From Seison nebaliae (lineage: Eukaryota): a stretch of 64,000 nucleotides of DNA. The notes under the pieces were generated by a model. It ran no database searches, was not told where the DNA came from, and worked only from the letters and a program-made list of their open reading frames with translations. The DNA lies in the NCBI GenBank assembly GCA_023231475.1, contig JALJEE010002959.1, positions 1 through 64,000 on the forward strand, given 5' to 3'. A program made the translations under genes and the position numbers. Shown piece by piece: positions 4,526-58,191 of the stretch (position 1 is the stretch's first letter; each line of letters begins with the position of its first letter).

Positions 4526-6306
4526 TTATGATGCGGGACCATTTGCTCCCTGAAAGATTCGTACATAAGACGGTCCTAACGAAGAGTTTGATGAGACGTT
4601 ACCTAAATTGCATAATTCGTAAACATAAGCTCGAATTCGATCTTCCCATGAGAGCAATTGACTCCATCCTGTCATTTCAGTTAGTACATGAACTAGTTTT
4701 GTACTCTTCGACATTCTTTCAACTTTTCCCGACGAATAACGTTCTATCAATTTTTTGGATTTCTTAAAAAATTTAGATTCATATATACTGAAAAGTTGGT
4801 AGATTATTGATAATTCGGATATACCCTTATCCTCAATAAACGTTGGCCATGTCTTTCCGACTCTTGTCACATTCTTGAGTTGATTATTTAAATATTCGCC
4901 ACATTCCACCCATTCTTTTGTTGCCATTGTTTGGGCCAGAGCGCCGATATGTTCGAAAGTTTGTGATTGATTTCGAACTTCTTCGAAATCTGTCTGCAAT
5001 TTTTCGATTTCTGCATCAGTCATCGCTTGGGATTTGAAGGATGTTGTGGTGAGAGATGCCTCGCCTTCGTTTGACGTGTTCGGACTGACCGTATGTTCAT
5101 GAGGATAATTTGAAGAGGCTTTGAAACGAAACGTCGATTCAACAGATGTCTCAATTAGTGGTTCGGTTGTACTACAAATGAAACTCGGTAAACTTTCGGC
5201 GTCCTCATCCGAATCTTCCGTCTTCAATGGATTACCAATATTCTTGTGCATTTTTGGTGGTTTGTCACTTTCATCCTCTACATTCGCTTCAGTTTCATCG
5301 TTCGAGTGTTCTTTGTAATAATAATTGTGTTTAACCGATTTGAATTCGGTTAATTGTTTGGGATCATTCGGAGGTTTTTTTCGTGTTCGGATCTGATTCT
5401 CGTACTCATTTAAATATTTTCGAAGGATCAGTGTCCGATCACTTTCCTCCGAAATGTTGATGGAATATCCATTTATTTGATCCTGCTGTTCTCCGTCAAT
5501 GATTGATGATTTATTCGAAAGGGTAAAAAGGTTGTCATGGTCTTCATCGGAAATTTCATTCCTCAACCCATTTCCATTCGAGTTTGTTTCAATAAATTCG
5601 GCCAGTTCCGATTTAGGTACCAGAATACTCAGTTCCTCCGTTTTCTTATATTTCTCTGGCTCATCTGCTGTAACATCGACCGTTATTGTGGAATCATCTA
5701 AACTTGTGTCACTTGTGCAAGGACTCAGCGAACTGGGAGAAGAATTTTTTTCCTAAAAGAAAAATTTTATAAACTTCAAAATTAATCAAATTTTAACAAA
5801 TTCCGTAATTTGAAAATGATCAATTTCTTTTTCTTCTTCATCAATATCATCCAATCTTTCTTTCTTCGATCCATCCTTCCTCCTCTTCAACTTAGAACAT
5901 GTTGTTGTTAACTGTGAGAGAAATTATTAGATTTCCATAAAGACCTTCCATAATGATTAACAGTGTTAGATTCATTGTCAGTAGTTTCATCATCCGACAC
6001 ATCCTCGAAGTACATTTGTGCCACGTCGGCGAATTTCATGCCATTTCCCGAATTGTACTGTTCCGTCAACTTTTCATTCGATGAATTCGCATCATTGTCG
6101 GATACTAAAATGATTGTTCACAAATTTTATGAATTTAATTTATTTGTTCAAATAAAAAAATAACTGTTGTCATCCTTATGGACTAGGATCAGTGGAACTT
6201 TAGCTTTAGTACTCGTTTCACTATCGTCATTGTTTGGCATGACTAACTTTGCATTTCGATAAAGTTGATCAGCATTTTCGGTTCGTTCTTCAATGGTTCG
6301 TTTCAT
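4526..6306 (-). CDS. Uncharacterised acidic, largely low-complexity protein (~541 aa, 4 exons)
   Basis: ATG at 6306. GT-AG introns 6105-6164, 5912-5961 and 5753-5797 join in frame to the 346-aa ORF. No domain recognised. Confidence 0.75.
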
Positions 6307-6891
6307 GGTTCGTGTGATTTGTAATAGAATTATGTTCGATTTCGAATTAAAGAATATCTAATAACGACAAATGACAGTATTATATTAATGAAAAGGAAGT
6401 TAAGAAGGAAGATTAAAAATGGTGGAAAAGAATTTTAAAAAATATAATGAATGTAAAAGTGCAAGAAATTCGAGATACTTATAGAAGGTCAACTAGAACG
6501 TTTATGCCACGTAAGTATAAGCGTGCATAAAATTCAACTTTAAAGATTATACCTACATATTAAGGGATGGAAGAGAGTAGAATATTTCAATATATCTTCG
6601 TTTCAAAACTGTATGTATGTGCATGAACTCATGAGATTATTGGATAGTTAGAGATAGATTGAAAAACACACTTCACTATTGGAAATGGTCCATAGAAACG
6701 TTGCATGACGTGTATGTCAAGCTTAAGTTGTACGAGATAGTTAACATGACATAAGCACTAATGAATTAAATTTTGAATTATTGCCAAAAAGGAAAAAAGT
6801 TGTAACTTTTAAAAATAAAAATATTTTTTTTCCAAATTTCTTCTTTTTTGAAAATGGAGCTGACATTTGGAAAACTGATTTTAATTCGACG

Positions 6892-8586
6892 ATGCCCTTG
6901 AACAAGTCGGAGCTTGCGAAGTATATTCGATTCCAGAAAGACACGTTCGACATTTTCGGTCACACGAAAAAGAAGAAATTTGTAAGAAATGAAGAAACTG
7001 TTCCAGTTCCATCACCACGACCGCCTACATTGTCAGAAGCTCCTCAAATTATCTCGTCAAAACGGAATGTTTTCATTGAGGATACGAAGATTTTAATGAA
7101 AAGTTTCAATCAATTCAAATCGAATGAGTGGAAACCATCGGAAAAACCTGAAAATGGAATTGCAGTTCCATTGAAAGAAGTTCAAGAGGAAAAAGATAAA
7201 TTGGTGAATGAAGATGATTTATGTGACGATCGTTTAAAAATGAAAGATTTGGGAAGATTAATGGAATCGATACGGATCGATAATCAGTTCGCTCGTTTTC
7301 CGAATTCGATAAGTGAAATTGGAAATATTCTACAGATAAATGTTTTTTTATTTTATTATATTTCTTCAAAGATTCTTCCAGGAGATTGCCCTTCCGAGTG
7401 TAACGGAGATTTTAAAAATGACAACACCAAAGAAGAATGAAGAGATTTTGAAGAAATGGAAAGAAAAGAAAATTAGGGAATTAGGTAGTATGGATGAATT
7501 CGAGAGAATGAGTAAACGTTAGTAAAGAATTAATAAATAAGAAAGAAATGTTAAATGAATTTCATCTTTTCTCATCATTTAGATACATTGTCTAATGGGA
7601 AAGAATTGCATTATATGATTACCAGATTCTTCGCTCATCGTCGTTTGATGGGGAAGAGCGAGAAAAACGTTAAGAAATTATTCAATGACTGTCTCCTACA
7701 ACTCAACATAAATAATCGATTAGCATGGAATAGTCTACGAAGTCTTCTTCTTTCCGGTTCTTATAATGATCGTCGCGATGCTGATTATCTGGTATCGCCT
7801 TATACAATCGGTGAATCAACATTCAGCGAAATACAAATTCAACATCCATTTCTTGGTTATCGTTGCGTCATTGATCATTTAAGTCGAGTAAAGTTAATTT
7901 TCAATAAGTTCTTTCAATCCTTTAATTTTCGACAAAAAATTTATTTTTCAATTTAATTCTTTGACACAATTTTTCTAAAGTTTTTCTTCTAAAAATTTAT
8001 ATCAACTTTTTTATTTAGAAAAGTAATATCAAGTTTTTTTGTTTAAAAAATTTTTGTCAAGTTTTTTTGTTTAAAAAATTTTTGTCAAGTTTTATTTAAA
8101 AAAAAAATTTCTATCGTTAAATTTCTTAAATCTTCTTAAATTCTTAGTGACAAATTATCGATAATTGATTGGAAGAGAAGTGATCGATTGAAATATTCGT
8201 ATGGTGACGCTTATGATTATCCTCTTCAATTAGCTGCTTATGGTGGTGCACTGAAACATTCGTTGTTATGTTATGAAAATGAAGAGAACAGAAATCAATC
8301 AAGATTTTACGATTCGTTGTCGATCGATATGTTGAAAGGAAGTGATGATTCCATCACGTTTAAATCAGTTAAATCATCTTCTTTTTACTCAATGAACGAT
8401 TTGCTTTCTATTTAAAATTAATGTTATGTGAATTTGTAGGTGAATAATTGTTATTTGATTTATGCGTACAATTTGGAAAACGAAGCTACAGTACTCCATA
8501 TGAATCCACAATTATTAACTTATTATTGGCAACTCTTCCTCCGACGCTATCTCCAATATTTCCGAAATAAACTCATTTTCAATTAA
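6892..8586 (+). CDS. MGME1: Mitochondrial genome maintenance exonuclease 1 (PD-(D/E)XK nuclease)
   Basis: Motifs LPSVTEIL, LKKWKEKKIRELG, GKELH, HPFLGYRCVID, IIDWK and YDYPLQLAAYGGAL. Introns 7342-7381, 7518-7582, 7893-8147 and 8368-8439. Start codon uncertain. Confidence 0.88.
8028..8097. repeat. Short tandem duplication in MGME1 intron 3
   Basis: About 2.5 copies of TCAAGTTTTTTTGTTTAAAAAATTTTTG. Confidence 0.7.
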
Positions 8587-8657
8587 TCTCATTTTAATAT
8601 TATTCTTTACATATCACAGAATCGTTTTCATGTTTGTGTGTATAGGAGAAGAAGAAA

Positions 8658-9109
8658 ATGAATAAAATCCTTCAAATCAAATTGAACAATTTGAGACGGA
8701 CGTGGCCAATATTGAAACAAAAAAGTTGTCTTTCTCATTTCTCCGTTATCCTAAAAATGTTTCTACTAATCATAAAGAATTCGATTATAGTCACATATTA
8801 TTTCGACAAATTGATGCGTATGATGAAGATTTGAAGAAGGTGACGATCAGTCAGGAGAAGATTGACGACATTCAACAATTCATTCAATATGCCAATCGAA
8901 TTCGTTTGAATAAAGCGAAGTTAGGTATTAGATATATATGAGATAATATGAGAGGATCTTCATCAATTTTTCATCGTTAATAATTTTTTAAATTTAGAGA
9001 TGATCATCTCACAATGTACAAACATGGAGCGACTGGATTGAGTTTGGAGAAATTGAGGCAGATTTGTTCGAAAGAAGCGTTCGATTTGTTGAGTTCGAAG
9101 AAGAAATAA
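8658..9109 (+). CDS. Small uncharacterised protein (~106 aa, 3 exons)
   Basis: ATG at 8658. Introns 8725-8777 and 8920-8997 give MNKILQIKLNNLRRTWPILKQKKFDYSHILFRQIDAYDED...EAFDLLSSKKK*. The basic N-terminus could be a mitochondrial presequence. Confidence 0.6.
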
Positions 9110-9184: not shown

Positions 9185-10814
9185 TTACCACAATTCATTT
9201 TTCTTCCATTTGTGGAAGAGATCGGAGAGACTGGTAAGAATTGGAACGGATACGGGAAGGAAAAGTGGAACATAAATTGCAAATTTCTGATCTTCTGGAA
9301 AGTAGAGACATTCCAATAAAGACGGATCATAAAAGGCAGTTTCTGGAAAGAAGAAATATTTTATGAAAAATAAATTCATGATAAAACCTGATAATTCATA
9401 AGCGAGACAACTCTCGTGATAGACTTGATGGGAAAATTTTCCGTTTCGTATTTGAGTAAGAGCGAAATTGATTTTGTTTAATGAGAGTGAGATTCGTTGT
9501 TCAACTTCGTCTCTGATGACGATGTTGGAGATACGTTGCAATAGTGATGATAATGATTTTAGTGTTTTACTCACCCCGATGATATTATTTAATGTCCGTT
9601 CGATTTGCCATTTCTGTAATTTGATTTCGTTTGGAATAATTTCATTTTCGTCCATCTGTTTATGAATGAAAATGAAAGATTGGAGGAATGAAACGAAAAT
9701 GAACTTCGATTTGGAGATTTTTAAAGAAATTTCTAATTAATACACCTTTATATTTTTCCACGCTGATGGTTTCCGTCTTCTGATTATAGATGATGATATT
9801 GCCCCAATCTTCACTGATTAATTCATTGACAAATTGATTCTTCTTATCCGTTTGGAAGACTAAAGGATAAGAATTGTTTGGCGTTGGAATTAAGATAATG
9901 GAATTGATAGTTTTCTCCAATTTGACATTGGACAAATGTCGATCTAACGAATTGAGAATTGGCGATTGTTGGAGAAGAGGAATGAAATAAAATTCCTTTT
10001 GACTCATCTCCATGACTCGATGAGAAATCGGAATATCCGTCTCATATTTGCTCAAGATTTGTGTGGAGAATGTGACGTTGAAATAATTCGAATATTTTTC
10101 AAAAGTTTTTTTCATAAATTCTAAAAATGAAATGGTAAAATTTTGGAGATGAGATTGAAATACAATTGAACTGTTTATAATTTTATTCATGTCCCATTCA
10201 TAATAAGGAACAATATCACGTTGACCGTGGAAGAAGGAGACGAGAGAAAAGGCCAAATGGAAATTGGGCGAATAGTTGAGTTGATTCGTTTTCTTCCCGA
10301 AGAAATTGTGATGAATTTCCGTTTTTACGAAATGGAAAAATTTCTCGTTGAATTGAGAGGAATGGAAGAAGATTGTATTCGTCTGGAAACCATAACGGAA
10401 ATTCGTTTCTTCATTCGTTCGAATGAGATAAATTGTGAGATCATTTCCATCCGAATGATGAATTTGACGATGGATGTCGTCGAGATGATATTGAGTAATT
10501 GATTTCTCATTCAATTGATCGATTTGTCGATTAGTCAATAAATGATTTTGATTAATTAAAAATGGAGAATGATTTTCATTCAATTTCTTCAAGAATGATT
10601 CGATGGAAATGGATGAATAAATGTTAATGGTGAATTTGGGATGAATATCATCGAAAGATTTTGGCAGTTCTGAAATATTTTCATATGGTAACAATGAACG
10701 ATATACTCTCGTTGTCATCCACCATACCGGTACGCCAACAACTAATACGACGATGGCATAGATGAGAGTTGAGATGTATAATCGTGTAGAGGAGATACCA
10801 TACCTGAATGACAT
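9185..10814 (-). CDS. PIGS: GPI transamidase component PIG-S
   Basis: N-terminal TM GVPVWWMTTRVYRSLLPY and C-terminal SETAFYDPSLLECLYFPEDQKFAIYVPLFLPVSVP. Introns 10121-10171, 9656-9704 and 9343-9387. Confidence 0.95.
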
Positions 10815-10851
10815 AATCTAATTTTGATGGAAAAAAAAAGAAGGAAATAAT

Positions 10852-13800: not shown

Positions 13801-13968
13801 CTTGAAATTCTCTTCTAATTCTTCTTCCGTTCGATCGGTTACGGCAAACTGCGGATCCGAATTACTCCGCTTTACCTCACTCTCACTCTTCACATCGATC
13901 TCATATAATGAAGTTGTTCCATAATTTGTTTCATTGAGGAAAGCGTAAACTCTCCGACTTTTCTCCAT
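10852..13968 (-). CDS. WDR24: GATOR2 complex WD-repeat/RING protein WDR24 (Sea2), intronless, 1038 aa
   Basis: N-terminal WD40 repeats, VCEWNKQLA helix, and C-terminal zinc finger/RING CVVCELPVNGLYLWCNVCEHGGH...CPSGCGHIC. Poly-Q (CAA)n at about 11718-11748. Confidence 0.87.
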   Translation of the reverse strand: MEKSRRVYAFLNETNYGTTSLYEIDVKSESEVKRSNSDPQFAVTDRTEEELEENFKIESRRINTNFSSDDNNKMPKMCQKRATQLVVDCACWQKHTEKWILVYILNDRRLGIMNIDEQLSLTRNHKTITPSKLIEISGLNRSIIQIESTAIHPNIFLLVAQANLLYIVLIEKKELMKVWIPFHSIKVLDCQWIPNRQCRFIILGEEFIQIWSMKGMKLKKLSSLHLNRYELNSFDIHPYIRWIAAVGNDKHIHFWRWKEQMVDKLTTVASKPMRTSVNSLLFSGNSTTSTTNTKPFSGSPTILLEKIMSTSIRTESSMNRVRWCPSTNYFRLAVLSCSADKFISIWDVHLNRHQNGLPPAVIFHKYLHNSTHFNWLTSSMILVSNLHQYVGIAWNHKTVEQKNNGNDNLMNYVFSLNHHGRVRYPRNFLMPKSLPKVSVRSFVLKSESYRLYDYRMENESELDDCQEFQNLRAIKKLIASYHYDGEDILEVCEWNKQLAEDVQMDDVRFLWKLVQFFIERMTTPIDYLLHIIYEEKRSRERINRESYLLEMIDNRFLLDNIVAHPSFYDAELKDGKESRRSSTSSIDEDNSQELDEKSSSTSSIHTQPSMSSNEQKSNYLDVSLVNMLPKHCKEILLGRRNLKNEKKKNEKKEMVLENYNDRFRHRLLSIRNDFYGIFLLNEEDNWENCSFTNHLRPFFRRFDKPEIWNDAEIDLHERNLSKTFPLVEFENFVLQSSNSFQQQQQQQQQQGDRKRKKRKIIQLRKAISYIQIVTECLGTCIDFYLEHCDDVQGITVINICLMMLLKKYCLLNEYYEYERLKNNENEFNMNHLVFSQQFNINYQSSLYDSHRYLIKKISLWMLELMNEVCLSSTDFTLVMDEYLHVINSFEMFDRSVELMKNPIVSHLSINTLDCSDMFIRIGCADCKNGIMQTASPRINSEIMTSSCEKCHKSLSCVVCELPVNGLYLWCNVCEHGGHPKHMIDWFTNGDVKINAENEMDDKYVERSSKVTFHGQCPSGCGHICYLSLNSIFFPSQTN

Positions 13969-15066: not shown

Positions 15067-15689
15067 CTCAGAATATTGTGATAAGAATGAAATTATCTTT
15101 TGAATGGAGTTAATCCTACAATACAACTACACTGAATCGAATTGAAATTTGAGAATGACAAAGAATTTCTCTATTATTTTATAATAATTATCTTCCCTTC
15201 TGATGAAAAAAGAATCTTGTTCCAACCTTATTCTCAATTACGAAAAACTATATATTTAAGCTTAATTTTAAAAATTGTTATGAATAACAATCATAATATC
15301 CATCATTGTCGTAATAAACCGTATTTAATTAACTTTTTGGATAGATAAGAAGTGGGAAAATATGAGTAGATGACTAACCAGCTTGATGATTTGTTGTTCA
15401 TGAATATTCTTATTCGTTTTAAGTTTGGGAAGAAAATTATTATTCAGATAACATATTTCACTCTTTTATGGTCGTTTTTAATGAAAAATTTTATAATGAG
15501 AAGAAATTTATTATTAACTCATTTATAAACAACACTACTCACTGTCAGTGGTTTATCATGTTTGCCCATTCTTGGGAAAGATCTTTGGGGGATACAAATT
15601 CATATTCTACGCTACGAAATTCATAGAGAAAAAGAATTAGTTTTAGTGGAAATTTTTTCTATTATAATAATTTTTAAAACTAACAATGG

Positions 15690-16000: not shown

Positions 16001-16369
16001 TTAAGTTATCCTTGGAAAGTTAAGTTCAAACTCATATTATTATTATAATTAGTTTTACTGATTTGGGATTTACTGAAATTTTTTTAAGTAAATTATATTC
16101 AATTTTTTTAAAATTAAATTTAAAAAATGTCAAGTATTAAAAAAGAGCTTTGTGAGAAATTTAACACATGATGAATGCCCCTCATAAGACACAATGCATC
16201 CATAAGTTATTTATAGAATAAAGTATAAATTAAATAACGATTAAAAGCGGAAGTATAATAATTATAATTTATATTTGTCTATTAAAATTTCGATCAACTA
16301 TGAATCTTCGATCTTTATAAATTATAAATTAAGAAAGAAGTCTATGGAAGAAGAATTTTGACATTGTTC

Positions 16370-41800: not shown

Positions 41801-44800
41801 GACGCATTCCAATTACATCATTTCAATTTGATGCTGTAACGAAACAAAGCGGTTTGGCTTCAACTTATCGCTTCTAGCTCTTTCTGAAGAATATTCATTG
41901 GAATATTCTCATTTCCATCTTTCGACGTCATCTAACCAGATTGTCTGGTTTTCCTATTAATGATTTGGTGGTTAAGAGGAAAACTAATTTCATTTTCTTT
42001 CCGATTCATTACGTTATTTATTGAGATGACGAAACTATTATCATTTGTCCATTTCTCTCATTTTCATTCTCCAAAAAACCGTCATCATTACCATCATCAT
42101 AATTCTGACTATTCATTGATCATTAGTTAAAAAGAATGATGTATTTCTTATCAACAAAATTTCTAATTTTATTCATTTTGTTGATTATAGTGCCGAGTGA
42201 ACCATTAGATGTAATGGCCAGTATTCATAACTCAACCGCAATCAGAGTCAGTTGGCGTCCGCCCAAATACCATAACGGAGAAATCCGTTCATATGGTGTC
42301 AAATATCTGGCATTTGGAGATGAATCGAAGGTTTTGCATTTCATTCATTATTATTCTCTTATTTTCGACGATTTTGTTATTAGAAAGGAAAAATCGATTT
42401 AACGGCAAATCATCGTTCAGTCACTATCACATCTTTGTTACCTGAAACCAAATATATTTTAAGTGTCTTCGCTAATACAATTGCTGGTGATGGAAAGCAT
42501 AGTTCCGAAATCGAAGTCACAACACCATCATTAAGTTTTTTTCATAAATTCCTATTCGGTTTCTATCTCCGTTTTTAGAACCGTTAACTGCCATAGGTTT
42601 TAACGCCTACATTGAACATTCCAATAAGAAAGGTGCGATAGCAAACGGTAATTCTGGATTACTTATCGTTGTGCATTGGACTTATTCGCGGAAAGCATTC
42701 ATTCTACCTGAATTCTTCAATTTATGGGTTTGGAGAAGGAGTTTCCCATTGACATCGAATAGTCAGAAGAAACCACCGTCATATTTAATAGCCGGTCCGA
42801 TTCGAATTGAACGTCGTGCTACAAGTAGTTACAGTTATTCAATGAAAGCTGGTTAGTTGTAATGAAAGAAAATTTGCTTGTTCTTCAAATATCTTCATCT
42901 TCTCTTCTCAGCATATGGTTATTGTTACGAATTTTCGTTGGAAAGTCGAACGAGAAAATTTCGAGGAGAAAGAAATGCAACGACGAGATTATGCACTTGG
43001 AATATGTCTCCAATTTATTTGCAGAAGGCAGTGAGTAAATTGAATATCTCTATCGATACAAACAAGTACGAAGCATATCATGATGATAATTCGAACGTGA
43101 ATCCTCAAACATTTCCTCAAATATCATCGAAATTTAGAAGCAGTTTAGTTTCTGATTTTTTTCTTCTTCTTTTCTCGAAGTTCGAGACTCGTAAATTATG
43201 TGAATAAAAAATAAGATAAAATTTCCTCATTTACCTCAACTAACTAATGAGAATGATGAAAATGGGGAAGACTATAAGGAGAATAGCGATAATGATTGAT
43301 TTGAATAATCTAATTAAAAAGAAATTATATATAGCAGATCACTTTACCTTCCTCGCAGTCAATGTTCTTCTTCTTTAGCGCAGTTCTTTAACCGAATTTC
43401 ACTTCGACATTCCTCTTTGACGTATCGTTCCACTAAACAAATGGGAATTGGTAAACGAAATAATTCTTCCGAATATTTTCACAAAAACAGCATCTTTATG
43501 GAAATTTAATCGTCTATTATATTTTCAAGAACTACATTCCCTCGTGTGATAAGGTAAAGAAAAAATAATTTCATAATTGTTCTGCGTACCTTCCACGAAA
43601 CAGGAAATGTCAAAAATTAAATTGGTGGAAAGTTACATAAAAAAGAGGAGGGAATGAATTGAGCATAATTTTTTCTTCTTCCAAATGAATTCCTTGTGAA
43701 ATATTTTAGAGTAAGTGTATAGTATTGGGTGAATTATTTAATGAATGAATAATTGTGTAAACCGTTTTCTTTTGCACCGAATAGAATTAAATTCGTAATT
43801 AGTCCAATATCATGATAGAAATTCTTCTAATTCTTTTCCTCCTTCAGAATCAGAAAGAATGACAGTCTCTAGAATTGTAATTATTGTTTCATAAATTTCC
43901 CATTTAAGTATTGAGCATTAGTTCCAATTTAAGAAGGATCTCATCCGTTAAAGTTGTAAGGGGAAATTAATTTTTTCGTTAACATTAATTCAAATTCATG
44001 TACACAAATTCATATTCGATAGGCAATACTCATCTATTGGAACAACCTTTCGAAACCTTCAATTCTCCAATAGGCCAAGAAATTTTTTACGAAAGAAAAT
44101 CTAGGTTGAAAAATCTGGAGAAAATATTTTGAATTTGTTGAACACAGTCCCAAATCAAATCGACGGATAGTTCGTAAAATGTGAGGAAGAAGAATATGGA
44201 ATATTCTTTGCATTTAATTATCTCATTATAGTTCGCATTATATCATAAATTTAGGAGGAAATTCCCCATCTGTCTCGTAGTACATGAAACGCATACTTGC
44301 TATTCTTATATCGATTGTACATGAGCGCTCGTTTTCTTTTATTCGATAACGAATGAACTTGCACTTTACACAATTTCTCCGTAATTTGCTTACGATTGTC
44401 CTTTTATTCATATTAAATTTCCTACTCCACTTCTCCTTTCTCCACCGAACGAAAATGAGTTGGAATATGTATCATATAACTGGAAGAGAAGAACTGTAAC
44501 TATTACCACTATTTTTGGTTTGAAATTGTACATGGTGCCATTATACTTGAATAATAAGGAATGTACAACATATTTAGTTATTCGACGACGACGACGATGA
44601 TGACGATGATGACGACGAGGAACCTAGGGCACCGTAATAGAATTATGGAATAATTTCTTGTGTTATTTGTTAATCAATTCATTACTCTCATTTTTCCATA
44701 TGAAAAGCAATATATTCTTCTATGTGTATCATATGTTATTGTTGTTGTTGTTATTGTTGTGATCATTTATTATGATTATTATCAATATTTACAATTTTTA

Positions 44801-47800
44801 TCAAGCTAAAAGATATAGAGTATTATTCGACTGATCACAATGGACGATTTATTCGTACGAATATACATCTGTGAGATTATCCATAGATGCATTAAATAAA
44901 AAGTATCGTTTCTTTTATATGAATCTGGGAGAGGTCCCTATAGATATACAGTCGAAAAGTAGAAAGTAAAAGTAGTCTCAGAAAAAAATACAGTCTAATT
45001 TTCTTCTTCTTTCTTCATCGAATTCTATATGACAAAAAATAAAATAAATTTAGAAGAAAAAACTTTCTCGCACACTTCCTTTCACCATATCCTTCTTGTG
45101 ATGTGTACCAGATATTATTATTAGTATAATTATTATTATTTAGTACAATCTTTCATATCGATCAAATAATAATTTCCACCAACATTCGAAATGGAGGAGA
45201 TTGGTGTGCAGAAGTTCATCCTATTCGATTGATGGAGAAGATAGAGGACGATATGTATATGCCGACACGGAAACATGTGACTTGACTGCTGTAGTTATAT
45301 CGGAAAAGTAATCAATTCTCGATTTCTACTATGTTCCACTGATAATTCCCATTGGAACTGAACATATCTTTATCGAAACGTCAATCGATCTAATGAATAG
45401 TCTCATATTACTATTTATGTAGATTGAGCTTACATCCTTACTCTGCACGAAAAATGCTCGATGTATTTTATGAGTTTAATTAGAACGTATTGATCGATTG
45501 TCGTGTGTATGCAAGAGAAGAAAAGAATGCCACAAACTCCATTTAACCAGAAGCTGTCGGGAATAGCGGGCAAATGACAAACCGATAAAATTTAGGACAT
45601 ACCTATTCAACTGATCGTACATACTCTAACTGATATGTATTTATGGTTTTATGTTTTTCTAATGTATATAAATATATATATATATATCTTCGTTCCTTCA
45701 TTCGTTCGAGAACGAATATGAATGATGAATGCATGATTCTTCCATTTTTCCGTTTCATTCCAGTTTAATGATATTTATTTATGTAAAAAAGAATTTTATG
45801 AGTTTTATTTGAAATATTTAATATTTCTTCCGATCATTCGTCCAATTTTATAATCAAAATGCAAATCATTCAGTTAATTACAATCTCCAAACAAAAACAT
45901 AAACACCAAACTAATAAACAACTTTTTAAATCGATATCCGATCTCCTTCTCTTTCATCAACTCATATAATTACTTTAGTTAATTCCTAAATTAGTTTAAT
46001 CACATCTAATCCTTTTCTTTTGTTTTCTCAAATTACAGTTATCGAATTATGTTTTATGAGAACATCACTCTCATATGAGTAGTTTGATATTCATTTTTGA
46101 CCAATAACGAGCAGCAGCTGCACCCTATTCAACGGAAATGTATCTTGTGGTTATTAATCCGGTTTTCTTCTTCACCTATTCTCTACTGCATGAATCCATC
46201 AATTATTGTGCAATATTAGGAAATAGACGACATCATTGCTCGATATATATTTATGTGTGCGTGTGTGTGAGGAGAGTAATCTGAGAAAGAAATAGTATTT
46301 GTAGGAAGAAGGAACTGTTGTTCGTGCAGTCATCGAGAATTCATATATTGAATAGTTGAGCATGCAATTTCATTGTATAAGTGGATTTGTGACAGAAAGA
46401 ATGAGAAAAAGGAAGAAATTCCTCTTCTTCCCATGCTCAGGATTAGGTGGAGGGGTAGAAGGAATAATTTTTAAATGAATTTCTGATTCTTAAATTGTAA
46501 GGATGAAATGAGAACGAATTGTGTCAGGAAATAAGTAGCATAGAACAATTGAAGAATAAACTTTTATTTGAATGATGTTTCCTCTCACGCTAAAATACTA
46601 TTAAAAAAAAGTAAAGAAACAATTCCGCTAATAAGTGATCGTCGAGAGAAATATCGATATCATTCGTCCGTTTCTCGTCTACTCAATCGAAGTTTGTAAC
46701 GGTAAGACTAACTAATATTAGTTATATTGCCACAATCAACAACTTAATACTACAATCTGATAGTGAGCGAATGATTGGGCGGACTAAGTGAAAGTTCTAC
46801 TGTACACACGAGTAATATGGGAGAAACCATACATTTTCAGTAGTTCAACTACTATGGATATTTGAGAGGAAAAAATGAACGACTCTCACAATTGCATAGT
46901 GATGACAAAACCGATTTATATACATAATTGTTATTTCATTCTACATTGTAGTTTCTCCTTCAGAAATTTGACGGAATATGTGATGAATATATGAATATCT
47001 CCTAGAGAATATTTATTATTCCATATCATTATTTATTTCCACTTTTTTCTCCTTTAACTTTCTCATTCCTCTTTTTCGATTTTCAATCGAAAGATCCTCG
47101 CCCGTTTTCCTTCGATTGACTTCTCCTATTAGCATTTTCCGTTCAATGAACATCATTTCCAAACTGACGGGAAGATGTAGTACTATATGTCCTGTGTGCC
47201 CAACTTCGGTCCCAGTTGTTATTAAATATTACAATGATTAGATAGACAATTGGAGAATGGAATATTCATTTTTTCCTTCCCCCCTCCTCCCATTGTTCTC
47301 AGCTTCCCCAACTATGACGAAATAATTGGTAAGAATCAACTGCAAATTGTCATTGTATTTCCTTCGTTATGATGCCTTTTTCTCCTCCATTCTTCTCCAG
47401 CGTGACATCGACAGAAATTGACAGCGGAAAACATCCTAATCGTACTAGAGGAAAGAAAAACGGTTTTTTTTTCTGGTGATAATTCACTGAAAAGATTGAT
47501 ATGCACTTAATGGGAGTTAAAGAAAAATAAAGAATACATTCTCTTCAAATTATCTAATCATGCCAATATTCTCCCCCATTCATTGCGCAAGCATTATTCG
47601 ACGGTCGATAGTTACATGTTTTCTCTTAAGAATAACGAGACACAACTGCATAAGTAACGACTCTGAGTAATTGGAATGAGACATAACCAATATTCAGGAA
47701 ATAACCTTATACTTCACATTTATGAAACTTTCACATATATATCTTTCCAATTTCCTCACAACAAATTAAATTTTCTTTCTTTTCATTTATTGCAACAACC

Positions 47801-50800
47801 AATTTCACATTGTAGTAATTTTTTAAAGAAATTTAATATAATTTTTGTTAATAAGAATTTAACCATTTTTTTTTAAATTTTTTCAATAAAAAGTAAATGA
47901 AGAACATTAGAAATCGAAAAACTATTGTAGATTGGATGGTGAGATGTGATGAAAGCAATCCCCATAAAAAATCTCAATATTTTTTAATGAAAGAAATGAA
48001 CGAAATTGAAATGAATGTGCTAAAACTGATTTGGCATGTTAGTTGAGGAAATGTTGGTGAGTGTTCTACTAGTACACAGTTTGATAAGGAGGATGATGTT
48101 CAGGGGATAAGTGTAGATTCGATGTTCATAACTCATATGTCGTTCATTAAGAATAGGAATTGAGAAGGAGGAAGAAGTGCGAATTTAATTGTTCCAATTT
48201 CCTCAATTTTTTTTAGGAATAATACAAAATTCACGCCCTTTTGGTTAGATGACGTCGTTTTCTGATTTGGTATTGAGATCGACGATACCACTAATAATGT
48301 TCGTCACACATTCTCATCTGAATCGATCTTTCGTATTATTATTCATGCGATTGAGGGATTGTAGGAGCGCATCATCTCTACCTTCGGCATTATTGTCCTC
48401 TCACTCGACATTTCTTTTTTTCCATTAAAAATTGTTGATGGAATTCCTTATTCATTCATGTTTCCCAATTCCATCGTCAATGCCCCCAATCTTTCCTAAT
48501 ATAATCTGTGCATTTTAATGAAAAATATTAATAATAAACGGTAATATTCGGAATATATTCGGGAAAATAGAAGACGACAACACCCAATTGACTGTTATAA
48601 GAAAATTTTATATTCCACAATCATCGTTTAGATTCTGTTCATTTAATTTCGAGAGATTATATCAGAATGTTGAACTGAGGTGATTTGGAACATTATGAGA
48701 ATATAATTAATATTTATTGATTAGTTTTTCTTCGCTTGTTTCTTGTTTTTCCGATTCAATAAGAATAATAAGTTGGAGAGAAATGATTAGAATCTTTTTA
48801 ATAGAAAGGAGAAAGTTAATTTCCTTTTGAAGTCGAAAGGAAATGGATGGCGTTCAATTAGAACATTGTCCAAGAGAGTCGTCCCTAACCATCTAATGGT
48901 TTGGGATACAATGAATGTTGGTTGTTATGTTGCCTTAGTCGATGATGGAGATGAAATGGATTTTTAAGGAAGTGTACTGATTTTTTATATTCAAATGAAA
49001 TTATCTTTCTACTACGTATCATATTTACTCCGTGTTTTCCCTCCCACCGACATTATCTAATATGATGGAATCATTTAGCAGAAAGAACAATATCAGTATG
49101 AAAGGAAATTATATTTATGAATGTTACCTTTATTTATGAAGAGTAGTAACCACTCTTCTTCTATTCGATTCGTGAACATTCACTCCAATTGAGCGATCTG
49201 AACAATGTTTCAATGCACATAAACCAGAGTGACAATGTGCACGTTTAATGTAGGAAGTTGCTGAACATATTAGTCCATGGCAGGGGTGTTAGAAGAGACA
49301 AGTTACTTGTATTATCTCCCACGATAATACAAGTAATATAGAAGACGAATTTGAAAATGCTTCTCATTTCTAATATTGGAAAAACATTGCTGGTGGTAAT
49401 AATGTCGGAGAATACTGTCATTTCCTTTCTAATAAAATTTTCTTATTAGAAATTCTATTGTGTCAATATATTATGCAATAGGTGCTTGTTCGATCATACT
49501 ATCATTCTTCGATATATGACACGTTCTAAATTAATGTCGACATCTACCCATTTGCATCATGGCGAATGATGGAATTTTTCTTCTTCTTCTTCTTCTTCTT
49601 CATCTTCTTTCCACATTATCATCGTTGTGATGATGTGAACATGAATTATGCGAATTAACGAATTTCATAATGAACATGTTATGATGAATCAACTGGGCGA
49701 CTGGTAGAAAGGAAACGATAATTGAAATGAAGTTATTGATCTCTTGTTAAATTATCAGAGTTTCATCATGAGAATCGAAATAAGACAAATTCAATTCTTT
49801 TAATCGAATTTGTAAAACTCATCAGAACTCCAATGAAGATCTCTTCTCTAACGATCTGAGAAGGAATTCATTCTCTCCTTGCCATTTTAATACTTATCTC
49901 ATTATTCACTTCATATGAATTAGATAAATTACCTTTCTCCGTTTGGTGTGTGTTGATGAAAACATTTCTTTGTTATCTATCAAAGAAGATGGAAATGTTT
50001 CGTCGAACCATAAATTGACAGTCGATGACATGAACATTATTCGGAAATGTTCTTCCATTTTATTCTATTACTTCGATGGCCAATGACGATATCTTATTTC
50101 AACATTACTTTCATCGCAATTCTTTTCGTGCTCATGAGAACTACACGTCTCACTTCTCCTGGAAGACACGACGTCTATAAGAATGTCTACGAAGATATCT
50201 CGAAGAATGTCGACGATCATGTCCTTTACACGTACGAAGCGAAAACTTCCAATATCAAAGGTTTCAACTCCTACCATTCCCAATCATCGAACCTTCTGAG
50301 AAGATAAATTGAAAAATTACTAAACTTAATACTAAAAAAATTTATGGAAATAAAAAGGAAATTTAATTTTTTAGGAAATTAAAGAAAAAATTATTAAGAA
50401 ATTCCATTGACATATTTGAAGCAGTAGAAATTCTATTAAACTTCTCCTTTTTCACTCTTTCAAAACAATTTAATTATTAATTTTTTTTTTAGAATCGTTG
50501 GACCAACCAAATAATCTGGGATTATCACACATCTCTCCAAACGCAGTACGAATTGTGTGGGAAGTGCCACATGTGATGGAAAGCAGCACAATCGCATCAT
50601 ATCAAGTACGCTACAAAATAGTGACGAGAGAATATCATGGGAACCGTACAAAGACACCAGAAGGCCTCCTCTTATCTGATTCGAATTCGAATATCACCAA
50701 CACCTCTTCCAATTTCATCGAGTTGCATCATCTTCAACCGGAAACTGAATATATCATCCAAGTGACACCGTGGCTACAAATTGCCACCTCCGACTATCAG

Positions 50801-53800
50801 AGTCCAATTACTTTTCATATAGAAAAAGGGAAATCGTCGGAAACTTTTAGTTTCGTTACACTTTCCGTTAATCAACCAGCACCGCAAATTATTCGAGTGG
50901 ATCGACCTGATCCAGGTACTATCATCAATCTGGAATGGGAACCTGTGCGCGACATTTATGGACGACACGTTCCCGTCTATCGTGTCTGGTATTCGGATGG
51001 TGGTCATTGGAATGAAGTCGTCGTACCTAATCGAACGCAAATCCGTTTGACGAATTTGCGGCCTCGTGCCAGTTATATTGTAGCGGTCCAATCTACATCT
51101 TTGAGAGGAAATACTTTAGTGTTTGGGAACATGTCCGAACATCATGTATTACGTCCTTTCACCGGTTATATTCATGATAATGATATACCGAAACCGATCC
51201 GTTTACAAATTATAGAAATGTCGGCCGATTCCGCCAAATTGAGATGGTTCGAACCGATGTTCCCTGATAGTCATGAAAATCGATTGAAGAGTTATATCAT
51301 CACATATGGTGGTAATGGCGAGAAGAAGTTTGTGAATATGTTCGGGAAAGAACAATCGTTGAGAATTGAAAAGAAGACGACTAATCGAATTCCTGCAAAT
51401 CAAAGAAGAACCGATTGGCTAATAACGAATTTGGAACCGAATACTCAATATTATTTTAATGTATCATCAGTGACAAATGACAATCGTATAAGTCAACCAA
51501 TATCCGTCATCAATGCGACGAAAGAAAGTGTACCAAAATTTTTAACGGCACCGGCTGTAATCGGTGCAGGAAAAGGCAATGTAGTTTGGTTGAAATTAAC
51601 ACAAACTACTCAGAGATATGGAAAGGTAAATTATTATCTTCTCTTTGTTCTTATGCAGAATTCGAGCGAACGAATCAGTACGAATTCTATACATCTATTC
51701 GACGACCGTAATGTGTTGAGAGATCGACGTCAAGATATTCCGTTCGACATACATGAAATTTATTCGGTCGATTCTCTCAGAAATCGATACAAGAGAAATT
51801 TGAAGTCAGATATCACTTATCCAAATCAGAGGAATGATTCGTTATATATTTCGGCGAATATATCGAGTGAAAATTTCGTTAAAGAATTCCCGTTAGGTGA
51901 TGGAAAATTTTATAATAATTTTATCAATCGAAAACTTCATGACAAAGTTTTCTATCGTGTTTTTTTGAGGGCGTGTGGCAATTCTGATCAATCTAATCAT
52001 TATGTGAGTAGTACGTTCAGTAACTGGTTCACCACGAAAGATGTCTACAAAACGAAAACGTCAGGAGTTTCGACGAATTTGCGCAATTCGTCAATCTATG
52101 ATGGTTTGCATGCAGGTAATAATTCGGGTGATAAACAAAGAAAGAATATCAGTCTAATTTGGATTATTGGAAGTGTTTGTGCAATCATCTTCTCCTTATT
52201 GATTTGTGTGTGTGCCATATTATTTTATCGAAGTAATTATGGAAAACGAAAGAGCCATAATCGAAACCGCCATATTCATCATCAGAAGAATGAAGAACAA
52301 AACGGTCTGATTAATGGGAAGATATCGAAACGATTAAAACATCAACAACAACTTGATGCGGAGCAGACGCAATTGCAGAATGAATATAAAAATATTATCG
52401 GTAATGATTTACATCCAGATGATATTGATGGTCAATTGAATCAGATGGATAACTGTAAAATTCCATTAGTTATTTCAGAAAAAACTAATAATGCTTCCGG
52501 ACTAACTGCCAATGGAATCACTAACAAGACAACAGCAACAACAACAACCACACACATGTCGAATAATATGACAAATACATTGCACATAAATAAGAAGAAC
52601 AACAACAACAGTGACAATAAAATGACGAATGAAATCGATAATGAGATGCGAAATCATTTTAAGTTGATACAAAATTCAAATTCGTCAAATTGTCCAAATC
52701 CGTCGTCGAATATACAAAACGGAAATTTATTAACTGTTGGCGATGCGAATCAACAACCGACGGATTTGTATATTTCAACCGACTGTGTATTGACGAGTAG
52801 TGCTGGAAATGGTACGGGAATCTCCGAATTATCATCAATGGCATTATCGTCGTCCGGTGGATTCTATAATAGTTCGATGCCTTTCCACATGAATGAGAAG
52901 AATCGATTAAAAAGTTATTGTTCAGCAACGACCGCTAATAATGATCCGGTAGATGCAGTGGAAGCATTGAGATCACAAAATACGAATACATCGTTACATA
53001 TGCATCCTCCCATACCAGCAGAACGATTACAATCGTATATCGAATATTTGAAGACGAATGATTCCATAGAATTGACAAGAGAATATGAATCGATTGAAAC
53101 GGGACAACAATTCGCTTGGAATATTTCCTTATTACCACAAAATCGATCGAAGAATCGTTATGCTAATGTCGTTTCATATAATCATTCGCGAGTGATATTA
53201 GAACCTATGAATTCGAATACTAAAAATATACTCTCCCCATCTAATCTCGGTACATCATCATTAGATGGTGAAAGTAATGATTATATTAACGCCAATTATA
53301 TTAGTGGATATCGTCGATCGAAAGCGTACATAGCAACTCAGGGACCATTACCAGAGACGTTTGTTGATTTCTGGAGGATGATTTGGCAAGAGAAGACTCC
53401 CATAATTGTTATGTTGTGTCAATTGGAAGAGAAGAATCGTATTAAATGTGACCAATATTGGCCGTCTCGTGAAAGTGAACAATATGGGAATATTGTCGTT
53501 CATTTATTAGAGTGCACCGAGTATGCATACTTTACTATACGTCTCTTCCGTCTTCATTTGATGGATCCAATGAATCAGGAACAATCCCAACAACAACCAC
53601 AACAACAACAATATCATCAAGTTAGACAATTTCAATATACGGCATGGCCCGAACATGGCGTACCAGAATATCCAACGGCATTTATTATGTTTGTTCGACG
53701 AATTCAAATTTGGAAGAGGAAATTATTCGAACGACAATATTTAAGTGATTATTCTCATGATGAATTCTCCACACCATCACCCAGTACGACAACGAACACG

Positions 53801-55053
53801 AACAATACAATCACAACCGCTACAACTACCACTGGATCGACTAACCAAATCTCTCCTAATAACATTCCACCAATCGTCGTGCATTGTAGTGCTGGTGTTG
53901 GACGTACTGGTGTTTATATCGTACTCGATATAGCACTAGATCGAATGAGTCAAGGTGAATTGAATGTCGATATTTATGGTTATGTCACTCATATGAGATC
54001 TCAACGCAATTATGTTGTGCAAACGGAAGAGCAATACATGTTCGCTTATGATGCGACATGTGAAGCAATCGAATGTGGTGAAACGGTTGTACCAGCTCAT
54101 CTTTTAAGAAATCATGTACATAAACTATTGAGATCGGTAGCAAAAGCAACTGCTTCCAATTATTCAGCCGCTTCACTTTCCGTCACAGAAATGGAATTGG
54201 AATTCCGTCGTCTCGGTGCTGTTAAAACGATTCCGGCGAAATTCACGGCTGCTAATATGGTTTGCAATAAATTCAAAAATCGGTTAGTCAACGTCCTCCC
54301 ATCGGAATGGAGGAGAGTTCCACTCAAATCCGTTTTCGGTGTGGATGGAAGTGACTATATCAATGCGAGTTATATTGATGGGTTTTGGAAGCAGCATGCT
54401 TACATTGCCACACAGGGACCATTAGCTGAAACGACCGATGACTTCTGGAGAATGTTATGGGAGCAGAATAGTTGTATAATTGTCATGTTGACGAAATTAT
54501 GTGAATTGGGTCGAGAACGATGTCATCAATATTGGCCGTCGGAACGATCTGCTCGATATTCATATTTCATTATTGAATTCGTTGCCGAATATTTTATGGG
54601 TCAATATATTTTACGAGAGTTCAAAGTGTGTGATATCAGAACGCAGGAATCACGAATAATTCGACAATTCCAATATCTCGATTGGCCGGAACAAGGCGTC
54701 CCCAAATACGTCGAATGTTTCATCGACTTCATAACGAATGTACATAAAACGAAAGAACAATTCGGATTAGAAGGACCGATCACTGTTCATTGCAAGTTCA
54801 TCAATTTCTTTCTTATTCTTCTCTTTCAAATTTCTCCATTTTTTCTAGTGCTGGTGTTGGACGTACAGGTGTCTGTATTGCGCTAAGCGTAGTTTTGGAA
54901 GAGATAAAATTTGATCAAACAATCGACATATTTCAAACCGTACGACTGTTAAGAACACAACGACCAGCTATGGTGCAAACTGAAGATCAATATCAATTCT
55001 GTTATCGGTCTGCCCTCGAATATTTGGGATCAGTCGAAAAACCAAATACATAA
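26871..55053 (+). CDS. Lar: LAR-family (type IIa) receptor protein tyrosine phosphatase, long isoform: signal peptide, 3 Ig, multiple FN3, TM, PTP D1 and D2
   Basis: Ig motifs ([30 protein letters not shown]), FN3 repeats, [28 protein letters not shown]1 [15 protein letters not shown]2 [26 protein letters not shown]. Inferred introns: 27049-27097, 27371-27429, 27613-27675, 27790-27847, 28055-28100, 28805-28860, 28982-29031, 29136-29185 (or 29194), 29412-29471, 29622-29672, 29865-42190, 42331-42383, 42535-42578, 42852-42911, 43143-50492 (donor uncertain), 54796-54848. Confidence 0.9.
39133..39171. repeat. (TG)n microsatellite, imperfect
   Basis: Direct reading of the sequence. Confidence 0.8.
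41251..41851 (+). CDS. Alternative first coding exon B of the LAR gene (signal peptide, furin-type site, FN3)
   Basis: ATG, hydrophobic [20 protein letters not shown]3 ending [11 protein letters not shown]...TKQS. Phase-1 donor at 41852 joins 42191 to give KQSVPSEP. Confidence 0.7.
50047..50260 (+). CDS. Alternative first coding exon C of the LAR gene (signal peptide)
   Basis: ATG at 50047 or 50083, hydrophobic [24 protein letters not shown] phase-1 donor at 50261 is in frame with the acceptor at 50492. Confidence 0.6.
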
Positions 55054-55832
55054 TCTTTCACTTTCACCCAACTCAAATCTATTCAAAGCAAACATCATAA
55101 AAGATTGCCATCAATTTTCGTATCGAATTATAATAATTCTAAATTTGTACAGAGTTTTCTTTTTTATTTTCCAAAATCTCCTTTTTGCTACAACAACAAC
55201 AAAGTCGAAAATGAAGAAACTTTATAAAGAAAATTTGTAAAAAGAGAAATCGGATCGAATCGTCGATTGTAATCTAATTTATATATTCATTCTTTTACGA
55301 TAAACTTTTTTTCAGTAATTCTCTAATTCAGCTAATCTCATTCTTTGAAAATATGAAACTAATCTAATTATTTTTACTATTATTTCTCCTCCTTACTCAA
55401 CAATTACCTGTTTTTTTTTCCTTCAATGTAAATCTTCTTCTAATTATTTTCTTTTTTTTAATATTTTTTCCAATTTCATTTTATGGTAATAAATTATAAT
55501 AATATCAAAACTTTTATTTCCTACTACACGAACGAAAACTTTGAAAATTTTGAAAGTTACATATATTTGTTCTTGGAAGCTGAACTGAAATTAGGACACG
55601 ATGGAAAGTTATTGAGATTTTCATGAAACTTGACGGAAATGGTCATCCTACGTACTCAAATAAGTGCCTAAGCGGAAATTAAAGGTTGTGAATGTAACTA
55701 TTAGTCTTGCATATTGATCTAATTAACCAATTCTGTCATTCATCGAACGATTGACATTCATGTATGAATGTCTCCCATCCACTTTTTCCATTTAAACGAA
55801 AAATCTCATTCACAAATTAACGGAGAACGTGA

Positions 55833-58191
55833 ATGTTAAGGAAGAATATGAAGAGAGGACAGGATAAAAATTTGGTGTCTAATAAAAAGACATGTATATG
55901 GATGAATTCAAATCGAGTTCATCACCAAAAAATATTTACTATCGACCTCGATCCATCGGAAGAGAAAAAAAAACCGTTAGACGACGATGATAATCTTAAA
56001 AAGAATCTTTTCAAAACCGCAACCAATACCGTTGAACCTATCATCAATTATACGTCATGTCATGGATTTAACGTCCTCTCTAACATGAATAAGAAATCGA
56101 AACGAAAATTCTTCTGGATTTTAGTGATGACCGGTTGTTAGTTTTCATGTTGTTCATATGAACTTCTTATGAGATAATTGTTCTATTTTAGGTTTAGCTT
56201 TCCTTGTGCAACAAACGACAAAACAAATTGATTTTTATAAAACGAAGCCAATAAGTAATCGAATTACTAAACGAATCTACAGTGCCATGATGTTCCCGAA
56301 GATCTTGATTTGTAACAATCATCGATTTCTTCGTTCGAAATTACAACAAAATCCCGAAATGTTTAACTATTTGAAAAATAATGGGAAAGTTTTGAGACAA
56401 GTTAATCGGATTACTCAACAAATTAGTGTTGGAACATTCCATCGAGTTGTCGATAAGGCCGAACGGCGATTCAGACAACTGATATTGAAACCGTACGCTG
56501 CTCAAACAGAAACTGTCTCAAAAAATTACACAGAAATATATTTGTTAGTCAATCTGGTAATGAAGGCGTTGCACAACATCTCTCAAAATCATGCAGAAGT
56601 TGATGCCAATTTGGTGCTATTAAGGAAACTGGTTTGGAATAAAACGAACACAGCAAACTTTGAAGAGGATTTCATTCGAGGATATAATAATTCTGTTGAA
56701 GCATGGATCGATACTAGTCTGACAAAATATCATCCAAATTTATTAGATATCGTTTACTTCCTTCAATCCAAGTTCATGCCGTTAATAGTGACATATGTGG
56801 GTGATCTCCATAATATGGTAGTCGATACATTCGAAGCTCAAGGTTCTATATAAATTCTATAAATGATCATTATATTCAATTTTTTTGAAAAAAGTAGATG
56901 TTATGATGAAAGATATTGCGCCATTAGAAATTGTGATGGAAACGTTACCAATATTCAACGATTTGATGTTAACTAAAATGGGTAATTTGTTGGATTCTGG
57001 AGATGGGTCGCGAAAACTAGGTGTTTCAAGAAGTTAATTCTTATCATAAATCTCATGTTCAATTCTTCCTAGTGTTTAATATGTCATTGTTTAACATTTA
57101 TCGATCGGCATCTTGGTCATTATATGAAAGTTTAATTTATTGTCGATTTGCTGCTATGAATTGTGATATGAATGTTAGAACATTTAATTAGGACTTTTCA
57201 AAATGATAATCGTTTGACGTAGGAACATATGTTTAAGGAAGTGATTACAACGAATGGTCGATGTTATCAATTCAATCCGGATCGAAATAGACCGTTGCAG
57301 CAATATTTATCGGGCGAAGGATTTGGATTGCAGATGTCACTCGACATTAAAACTTATGATTCAGATGTCTTATTAAATTCGCTCTATAGTCTTACACAAT
57401 ATACGAATGCCATAAAAATTTATATATCAAGTCCGTTTGATGATGCGATGGATGAACCGCTTTTGTTGCAACCGGGATATCATCACAACATTGACATTTC
57501 ACTAACTCGCGCTATTAATTTGGATGAGAATCATTGGGGTGATTGTATAAAGACGAAAATGAGAATCGTTGATTTGGATTATACACCATCACTTTGTTTG
57601 ACTGAATGTTTATTAGATACGATTGAGGATGCATGTGGTTGTCGTCCTTATTATGATCCTCGAGTTTCTTGTTAGTCTTTTTTCCTTTTTTCTATCATTT
57701 ACTTTCTCTCATTATCAGTGAATGAAACAAAACATTGTGTAATACAATCGGATGTTGTTTGTGCACATATTACTGAACGTTAATATATGAGACATATTTG
57801 TAGATAGACAATAAATATGAGTTGTTAAAATTAATTTGTAGAAATGAATCGAGGTTGTCCCAAATGTTCAGCTCAGGCATGTGACTCAAGATCGTATGAA
57901 TGGCGGATGACAAGTGCACCGGTCCTATTGGAGAATATGGCGGAATATTTCCCGTTTACATTTTTGCGAATATTGAAATAATTCCAAATTTATTGTAGGA
58001 ATTCTACGGTCAGTTTCAATATTCAATTTAGCAAAATGTTAGCGACTCGATTCGTCCAAATCCAATTAACAACGATCGAAACTTTAATCGGTACATTCGG
58101 TGGATTATGCGGTCTCTGTTTAGGCATTTCTATCGTAACTATGTTCGAATTCATCGAGTACATCATTCTTCGTATAACTGCTTGCTTCTAA
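55833..58191 (+). CDS. DEG/ENaC (ASIC-like) sodium channel subunit, 8 exons
   Basis: Pre-TM1 TSCHG, TM1 RKFFWILVM, FPKILICN, GRCYQFN, Cys-rich thumb, TM2 LIGTFGGLCGLCLGISIVTMFEFIE. Introns 56137-56191, 56843-56897, 57021-57072, 57174-57222, 57671-57718, 57779-57841 and 57954-57998. Confidence 0.92.

Follow-up and report, generated by a model that had tools for sequence, protein, structure and literature searches.

Introns with GTT donors in a 64-kb window of Seison nebaliae and a one-base displacement of the exonic donor signal

The fixed features of animal donors (5' splice sites) are held to include a purine at +3 and a G at -1, because the small nuclear RNAs (snRNAs) U1, U5 and U6 are nearly invariant. 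Shifted-register 5' splice sites were reportedly found in mammals by Roca and Krainer in 2009. Such sites are described as a rarity in mammals (PMC9311317, PMC4856993), and the validated human bulge and loop registers together were put at 1.5% of sites (PMC4856993). In Entamoeba, 88-90% of the donors are GUUUGU and the 5' arm of U1 reads ACAAAC (Roy and Bowser, bioRxiv 10.1101/2022.06.08.495308); according to that preprint, Mastigamoeba has a different compensated U1 arm and several lineages with GUAUGU donors have none. Here we analysed the donors of Seison nebaliae, an animal of the rotifer line whose hosts are Nebalia crustaceans (PMC8351084), in one window, by which we mean the whole stretch of 64,000 nucleotides (64 kb) of contig JALJEE010002959.1. 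Nearly all introns placed in this window start with GTT, and T at +3 is very probably the default donor base of the entire genome. The altered donor code is real; it was supported by RNA at 7/7 testable junctions and is not explained by base composition.

The sample consisted of 35 introns in 7 gene regions of the window. The first 33 were placed by means of reading frames, homology and two NCBI models, and 2 more were added from RNA; by class, 17 are NCBI-model introns, 8 homology-bounded, 8 hand-placed and 2 RNA-only. The genes in the window are gene A, an MGME1-like gene, the small gene C, PIG-S, a WDR24-like gene, a RING gene, a LAR-type receptor phosphatase (26.9-55.1 kb), a channel gene of the ENaC/ASIC family and an INTS4-like gene. 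Two window-encoded proteins equal NCBI records of Seison nebaliae, SNEBB_007521 (P0122) and SNEBB_007518 (P0123), and a third, the single-exon WDR24-like protein, is present in the protein collection. Nine junctions at 27371-29622 that had been read by hand agreed with the NCBI model retrieved afterwards. Candidate donors at 29865, 30168, 30187, 30362 and 50260-50261, whose partner acceptors were not fixed, were left out of the counts. Long contigs of two DNA runs (X1 and X2) were identical to the window over 49900-58300, which excludes assembly error as the source of the donors; these contigs are genomic and contain no splice joints.

All 35/35 introns are GT..AG, termini which were the placement rule and are independent of it only for the 7 gaps in RNA described below. 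At +3, T was found in 33 introns, G in 1 and A in 1 (95% interval of the T share 81-98%), and GTT was present in 15/17 NCBI-model, 8/8 homology-bounded, 8/8 hand-placed and 2/2 RNA-only introns. GTAAG or GTGAG was the donor in 0/35. The original prediction, an earlier reading of this DNA, had claimed 34 T, 2 G and 1 A among 37 donors and no GTAAG or GTGAG; the rebuilt list bears out both points. The usual purine majority at +3 combined with G at -1 is absent (purine at +3 in 2/35, G at -1 in 7/35). Counts at the other positions (n = 35) were A 17, C 13, T 4 and G 1 at -2; A 17, G 7, T 6 and C 5 at -1; A 18, T 10, C 5 and G 2 at +4; A 13, G 10, T 9 and C 3 at +5; and T 19, A 9, G 5 and C 2 at +6. 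Among 33 donors 21 different hexamers occurred, the commonest in 5/33 and GTTAGT as the second in 4/33. The introns are short (median 53 nt, 40-78 nt in 32/35), contain 45% T and end in TAG (21), CAG (8) or AAG (6). None of the 35 has GTATCC or ATATCC, the donor of U12-type (minor) introns. YTRAY was found in 12/35 of the last-45-nt stretches at scattered distances, a count made without a control set.

The G + C content of the window is 28-37%, and T follows GT at 39% of the sites in the window (2178/5617) and at 54% of the intron-internal sites (37/68). The observed 33/35 has a P of 7e-12 against the former background and of 2e-7 against the latter. Frame-keeping, stop-free alternative donors near the first 33 introns had T 19, G 17, C 15 and A 13 at +3, showing no excess of T (19/64).

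RNA evidence was taken from a table of transcripts aligned to the genome, published as Additional file 2 of PMC8351084 (rows 3241 and 3234). Two of the rows listed are spliced in this interval, with 7 gaps in all; among the rows listed, none was for the MGME1, LAR or channel genes. The gaps were GTT..AG in 7/7 and lie in the standard register, so these introns are cut at GU. Five gaps equal introns that had been placed beforehand, and two are new, in-frame introns of PIG-S (51 and 45 nt). RNA-defined donors were singled out by the original prediction as the check that could overturn it if most were GTA or GTG; at these seven junctions they are GTT throughout. Its caveat was that a few junctions chosen by reading frame might be misplaced. 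The five introns placed beforehand match the RNA, and frame-based picking missed the two PIG-S introns. The genes and introns concerned are as follows (a slash marks the exon-intron boundary).

4526..6306, minus strand: gene A with 3 introns, assigned to no Pfam family (transcript row 3241)
6105..6164, minus strand: gene A intron 1, ACA/GTTATT, 60 nt; RNA gap, unique placement
5912..5961, minus strand: gene A intron 2, ACT/GTTAAT, 50 nt; RNA gap, unique placement
5753..5797, minus strand: gene A intron 3, TTT/GTTAAA, 45 nt; RNA gap, two equivalent placements, one of them GT..AG
8920..8997, plus strand: gene C intron 2, GAA/GTTAGG, 78 nt; RNA gap, unique placement
9185..10814, minus strand: PIG-S gene (Pfam PF10510), 3 introns (transcript row 3234)
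10121..10171, minus strand: PIG-S intron 1, ACA/GTTCAA, 51 nt, in frame; RNA only, unique placement
9656..9704, minus strand: PIG-S intron 2, GAA/GTTCAT, 49 nt; RNA gap, unique placement
9343..9387, minus strand: PIG-S intron 3, CAG/GTTTTA, 45 nt, in frame; RNA only, four equivalent placements, one of them GT..AG

In three parts of the same Additional file 2, most gaps of 40-90 nt are entered as deletions with the direction 'indeterminate' and not as introns. Such entries may reflect donors that fit the model of the aligner poorly, or merely the short length.

As controls, 80 metagenome loci encoding related phosphatases were used. Of these, 55/80 had less than 52% identity or no chain; 25 passed the filter, 13/25 had no introns and 12 did. 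Protein score placed 33 introns in them, of which 2 with GC donors (both T at +3) were set aside. The remaining 31 GT donors had A 25, G 5, C 1 and T 0 at +3 and G at -1 in 19/31, with the usual exonic pattern M(-3) A(-2) G(-1), in which M is A or C. The difference in T at +3 between Seison (33/35) and the controls (0/31) has a Fisher P of 3e-16. Donors from the four control loci with a G + C content of 29-34% were GTA in 9/9.

One intron allows a comparison at the same position in other genomes.

54796..54848, plus strand: LAR D2 intron inside the HC/S motif, GCAA/GTTCAT, giving HCNAG; no alternative placement in frame

Control loci L001, L006, L032 and L080 also carry an intron within the HCSAG motif of D2, with position and phase identical to those in Seison and always as GCAG/gtr. 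The last match of the motif was invariant in 120/120 homologs (112 with two matches and 8 with one; vertebrate where named). In Seison the Ser of this motif is replaced by Asn (HCSAG to HCNAG), as read from the DNA, and the change from GCAG/gtr to GCAA/gtt runs toward the new motif. Since the intron sits at the same position in four control loci and has GCAA/gtt here, at least the D2 intron is old and its donor was rewritten in place, at the cost of one residue change predicted from the DNA. An introner-type origin would place introns at new positions absent elsewhere; at the one testable position, the D2 intron is shared with the four control loci.

The residue differences HCN versus HCS (D2 of LAR) and P versus R (channel) prompted the idea of a cut one base upstream at both ends (N-GTT..A), with the G of AG as first base of the next exon. 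It was rejected, because gaps on both strands within a single transcript row sit in the standard register and 5/7 of the RNA gaps have a unique placement with a base other than G at -1. At the last intron of the channel gene (57954-57998, plus strand, CC/GTTTAC), Pro is encoded where the aligned ASIC chains have Gly or Ser, which may be a further residue change next to a donor.

Expectations for exonic bases were derived from the codon-position composition. G at -1 (7/35 versus 7.5 expected) is at background level. A or C at -2 occurred in 30/35 versus 17.1 expected (P ~1e-5) and was present in both subsets (NCBI 14/17, others 14/16); C at -2 occurred in 13/35 versus 5.6 expected (P 0.002) and A at -1 in 17/35 versus 11.8 expected (P 0.047). 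C at -3, A at -2 and G at -1, which make up the unshifted exonic pattern, were together at chance (28 versus 24.2). The exonic triplet of Seison, M(-2) A(-1) G(+1), is the usual MAG moved one base to the right. The original prediction had read -1 as any base, with G in 9/37; the loss of G stands, but an exonic signal does exist, displaced, as M(A)/GTT. On the intron side, the unshifted pattern +4 A/+5 G/+6 T was significant (47 versus 27.8 expected, P 2e-4), and the shifted pattern +5 A/+6 G/+7 T scored 35 versus 28 expected (P 0.07). The donor signal is a hybrid, with the left half shifted and the right half unshifted.

Pairing was scored with the standard U1 arm (AUACUUACCUG, sequence as in PMC4856993). 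The mean number of pairs in the normal and the +1 register was 4.45 and 4.73 for Seison and 6.16 and 3.32 for the controls, of which 30/31 paired better in the normal register. By duplex energy with a free register, the standard arm gave an area under the curve (AUC) of 0.53 for the 35 Seison donors against 226 nearby GT decoys, and of 0.84 for the controls. This failure of the standard arm to separate the donors lends indirect support to the altered recognition apparatus that had been proposed from the sequence. Variant arms with an extra A did better on the Seison donors, with an AUC of 0.73 (C8>A), 0.70 (U6>A plus one C deleted) and 0.62 (U6>A); a single-U deletion gave 0.51.

What follows on U1 and U6 we infer from the donors. 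We give an even chance to U1 pairing one base displaced, likely by means of a changed 5' arm. The introns would then be ordinary short GT-AG introns with the donor (A or C)A/GTTA(A or G)T, on which the pairing of U1 would lie one base deeper in the intron than it does in other animals, the changed arm being the probable cause. U at +3 would take over the pairing of U at +2, G at +1 that of G at -1, and A at -1 and C at -2 those of A at -2 and C at -3. A single change of U1 nucleotide C8 to A, the simplest single event, would make the match to CA/GUUAAGU complete and would account for U at +3, the loss of G at -1, the gain of A at -1 and C at -2, A at +4 and A or G at +5. U6, through ACAGA, would keep the cut at GU and supply the residual G at +5 and U at +6 (for the roles of U6 and U5 in donor choice, see PMC11732430, PMC4856993 and PMC8283771). 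In its widest form, which we put forward tentatively, the whole set of major introns would have been recoded in place to MA/GTTA, a U1 with a changed arm (predicted as AUACUUAACUG or AUACUAACUG) would make the shifted register the default, and selection would have altered conserved residues at exon ends.

Several points weigh against displaced pairing. As to the sample, the 35 introns come from one window, 28/35 are without RNA support, 20 of the first 33 are in phase 1, and the control loci are metagenomic, L034 and L035 having one intron in common. As to the pattern, the test at -2 was picked after the table had been inspected, and +5 G/+6 T, at their unshifted places, are in significant excess (29 versus 17.6, P 2e-4). 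G at +6, which the shifted register predicts, occurred in 5/35 (5/33 versus 2.8 expected, P 0.14; 1/17 in the NCBI subset), and the shifted intronic pattern had a P of 0.004 in the 16 non-NCBI introns and of 0.18 in the 17 NCBI ones. With the standard arm, 16 of the 33 Seison sites paired better shifted and 14 better in the normal register, with 3 ties. The variant arms were designed from the consensus, so that their higher AUC is partly built in and their ranking is a prediction, and the C8>A arm also scored 0.72 on the controls. The window itself gave no Rfam match and holds no snRNA gene.

The unshifted right half of the signal brings in a change of the Entamoeba type. U1 would stay in its normal register, its nucleotide U6 would have become A (ACUAAC; arm ACUAACCUG) and would pair with GUUAGU, and exonic pairing would be lost. 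Entamoeba provides a direct precedent (bioRxiv 10.1101/2022.06.08.495308), GTTAGT is the second commonest hexamer (4/33), and A at +4, G at +5 and T at +6 are in excess at their normal places (47 versus 27.8, P 2e-4). Such a change, however, leaves A or C at -2 and A at -1 unexplained, predicts a helpful G at -1 where G is at background, and its arm reached an AUC of only 0.62. We consider it unlikely.

The poor performance of the standard arm (AUC 0.53) would also follow if U1, U1C or LUC7 were weak or lost. Intron definition would then govern the short, T-rich introns (median 53 nt, 45% T), with the donor chosen mainly by a U6 with an unchanged ACAGA, whose G44 could pair with U at +3, and by U5. 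G44 of U6 does face +3 (PMC11732430), pairing of GUUUGU with ACAGA was proposed in Entamoeba (bioRxiv 10.1101/2022.06.08.495308), A at -1 and -2 would fit a U-rich U5 loop, and ~35% of the BUSCO Metazoa genes were reported missing in Seison nebaliae (PMC8351084). We nevertheless doubt this explanation: U6 favours U at +4 and G at +5, but +4 has A 18 and T 10 and +5 has G in 10/35; a U-rich loop leaves C at -2 unexplained; and the short, AT-rich introns of other animals keep A at +3 (9/9).

A change on the side of U6 or of proteins only (ACAGA G44, Prp8, SNRNP27K or METTL16), with a standard U1, is very improbable. These factors do shape donor preference in other lineages, but the effects described there centre on +4 and the balance between G at +5 and G at -1, and not a fixed U at +3 with both of these lost (PMC11732430). 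An artefact of AT richness or frame-based junction choice has hardly any chance of being right and is already largely refuted: GTT is the commonest GTN here (39-54%), 19/33 introns have an in-frame GTA or GTG alternative and the NCBI models may stem from a predictor trained on the Seison genome, but the RNA gaps were GTT in 7/7, 2 of them unpredicted, 14/33 introns have no GTA or GTG alternative at all, and the AT-rich controls were GTA in 9/9.

The other genes and introns that entered the counts, together with the two exceptions to GTT, are listed below.

6894..8586, plus strand: MGME1-like nuclease gene, ends approximate; one exon matches MGME1 in the PDB (E 3e-4), and a PDB search with exon 3 gave no match
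7342-7381 (GTTTTT), 7518-7582 (GTTAGT), 7893-8147 (GTTAAT) and 8368-8439 (GTTAAA), plus strand: MGME1-like introns, placed by frame and motif
8725..8777, plus strand: gene C intron 1, AAA/GTTGTC, 53 nt, hand-placed
26871..29869, plus strand: LAR-type receptor phosphatase, Ig/FN3 part (NCBI model P0123)
27049, 27371, 27613, 27790, 28055, 28805, 28982, 29136, 29412 and 29622, plus strand: donors of the LAR Ig/FN3 part, 8 GTT, 1 GTG and 1 GTA
27371..27429, plus strand: exception donor AAA/GTGAAT (NCBI model), no in-frame GTT alternative
27613..27675, plus strand: exception donor ACG/GTAATT (NCBI model), one in-frame GTT alternative close by
29828..29833, plus strand: textbook GTAAGT within the last exon of NCBI model P0123, read through in the model (sequence and model mapping)
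41251..55053, plus strand: LAR-type phosphatase, FN3 to PTP part, start hand-placed
41852-42190, 42331-42383, 42535-42578, 42852-42911, 43143-50492 and 54796-54848, plus strand: introns of the LAR FN3-PTP part, all GTT, the 7.35-kb intron hand-placed
55833..58191, plus strand: ENaC/ASIC-family channel gene (NCBI model P0122)
56137, 56843, 57033, 57174, 57671, 57779 and 57954, plus strand: donors of the channel gene, all GTT

At its end, NCBI model P0123 reads through T/GTTAGT into a stop. The annotation of the LAR gene is probably split at long introns (29865-41251), with candidate linking exons at 30086-30362 and from 41251 onward, and no NCBI model covering the PTP-domain part was found. Very long exons occur next to introns of 40-78 nt: 4.3 kb in LAR (50493-54795), 3.1 kb in the WDR24-like gene (10855-13968) and an open frame of over 5.4 kb in the INTS4-like gene (58519-64000), which suggests heavy intron loss. 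The INTS4-like frame encodes at least 1,800 residues versus ~960 in the solved human chain. On the minus strand, only 37 nt (10815-10851) lie between the stop of the WDR24-like gene and the start of PIG-S, with a pyrimidine tract and a TAG three bases 5' of the ATG. One transcript row crosses this stretch unspliced. The two genes may form an operon-like unit that has an acceptor for trans-splicing.

Tandem repeats were seen at 1671-1777 (31 nt) and 7968-8115 (28 nt); the latter lies inside MGME1 intron 3 and lengthens it. The stretch 3605-3680 (minus strand) resembles a tRNA-Asp; ARAGORN and Rfam call nothing there, and it is perhaps a decayed copy. The stretch 15684-16117 had a depth of 587 versus ~20 around it, with opposite-strand joints, and is a high-copy element with inverted ends. 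At 51527-51735, at 55633-55761 and in further short stretches, low-depth contigs from X1 and X2 diverge by ~13-20%, with the differences at 51559-51700 falling mostly on every third base. They point to a second lineage, itself diverged, that was sequenced along in both runs; no donor was spanned by the pieces listed.

No animal with GTT as the default donor was found in the literature searched, which left most subscription papers outside, and unopened supplement tables covering multiple species could hold one. In the passages searched of the genome paper on Seison, introns figure only as spans, and its supplements are without splice-site text (PMC8351084). An intron-rich animal with other bases in place of both the +3 purine and the -1 G implies that thousands of introns already present can take on a new donor code. 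The Entamoeba preprint leaves open whether donors change by co-evolution with snRNAs or by loss of the introns that do not fit (bioRxiv 10.1101/2022.06.08.495308), a question on which the donor code of Seison bears. The finding further gives a sharp and inexpensive prediction, the sequence of the U1 arm, and a natural test of the uncoupling of the U1 register from the cut set by U6. It is also a warning for gene prediction in the clade of Seison.

Compared with known systems, Seison and Entamoeba are alike in having U at +3 as the default, a weak fit to the standard U1, an AT-rich genome and a host-associated life. They differ in that the animal Seison is rich in introns (35 were placed within 64 kb) whereas Entamoeba is intron-poor, and in that the donors of Seison are heterogeneous and keep A at +4, while Entamoeba has a near-uniform hexamer with U at +4. 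Moreover, Seison has a displaced exonic signal. As at the shifted-register sites described in mammals (PMC9311317, PMC4856993), U1 pairing would be moved by one base without any shift of the cut from GU, and the place of CAG is taken by exonic C(-2) A(-1) and G at +1. Those sites are rare in human and use the standard U1; displaced pairing would be the default in Seison, and the G anchor at +6 is rare there (5/35). With the U2-type introns of compact animals, those of Seison share GT..AG termini, a length of 40-78 nt in 32/35, T richness, YAG or AAG acceptors and at least one ancestral position, but not the A or G at +3, and their G at -1 is at background. The donors of Seison resemble Entamoeba-style co-evolved donors or generalised shifted-register donors, and are full members of neither class.

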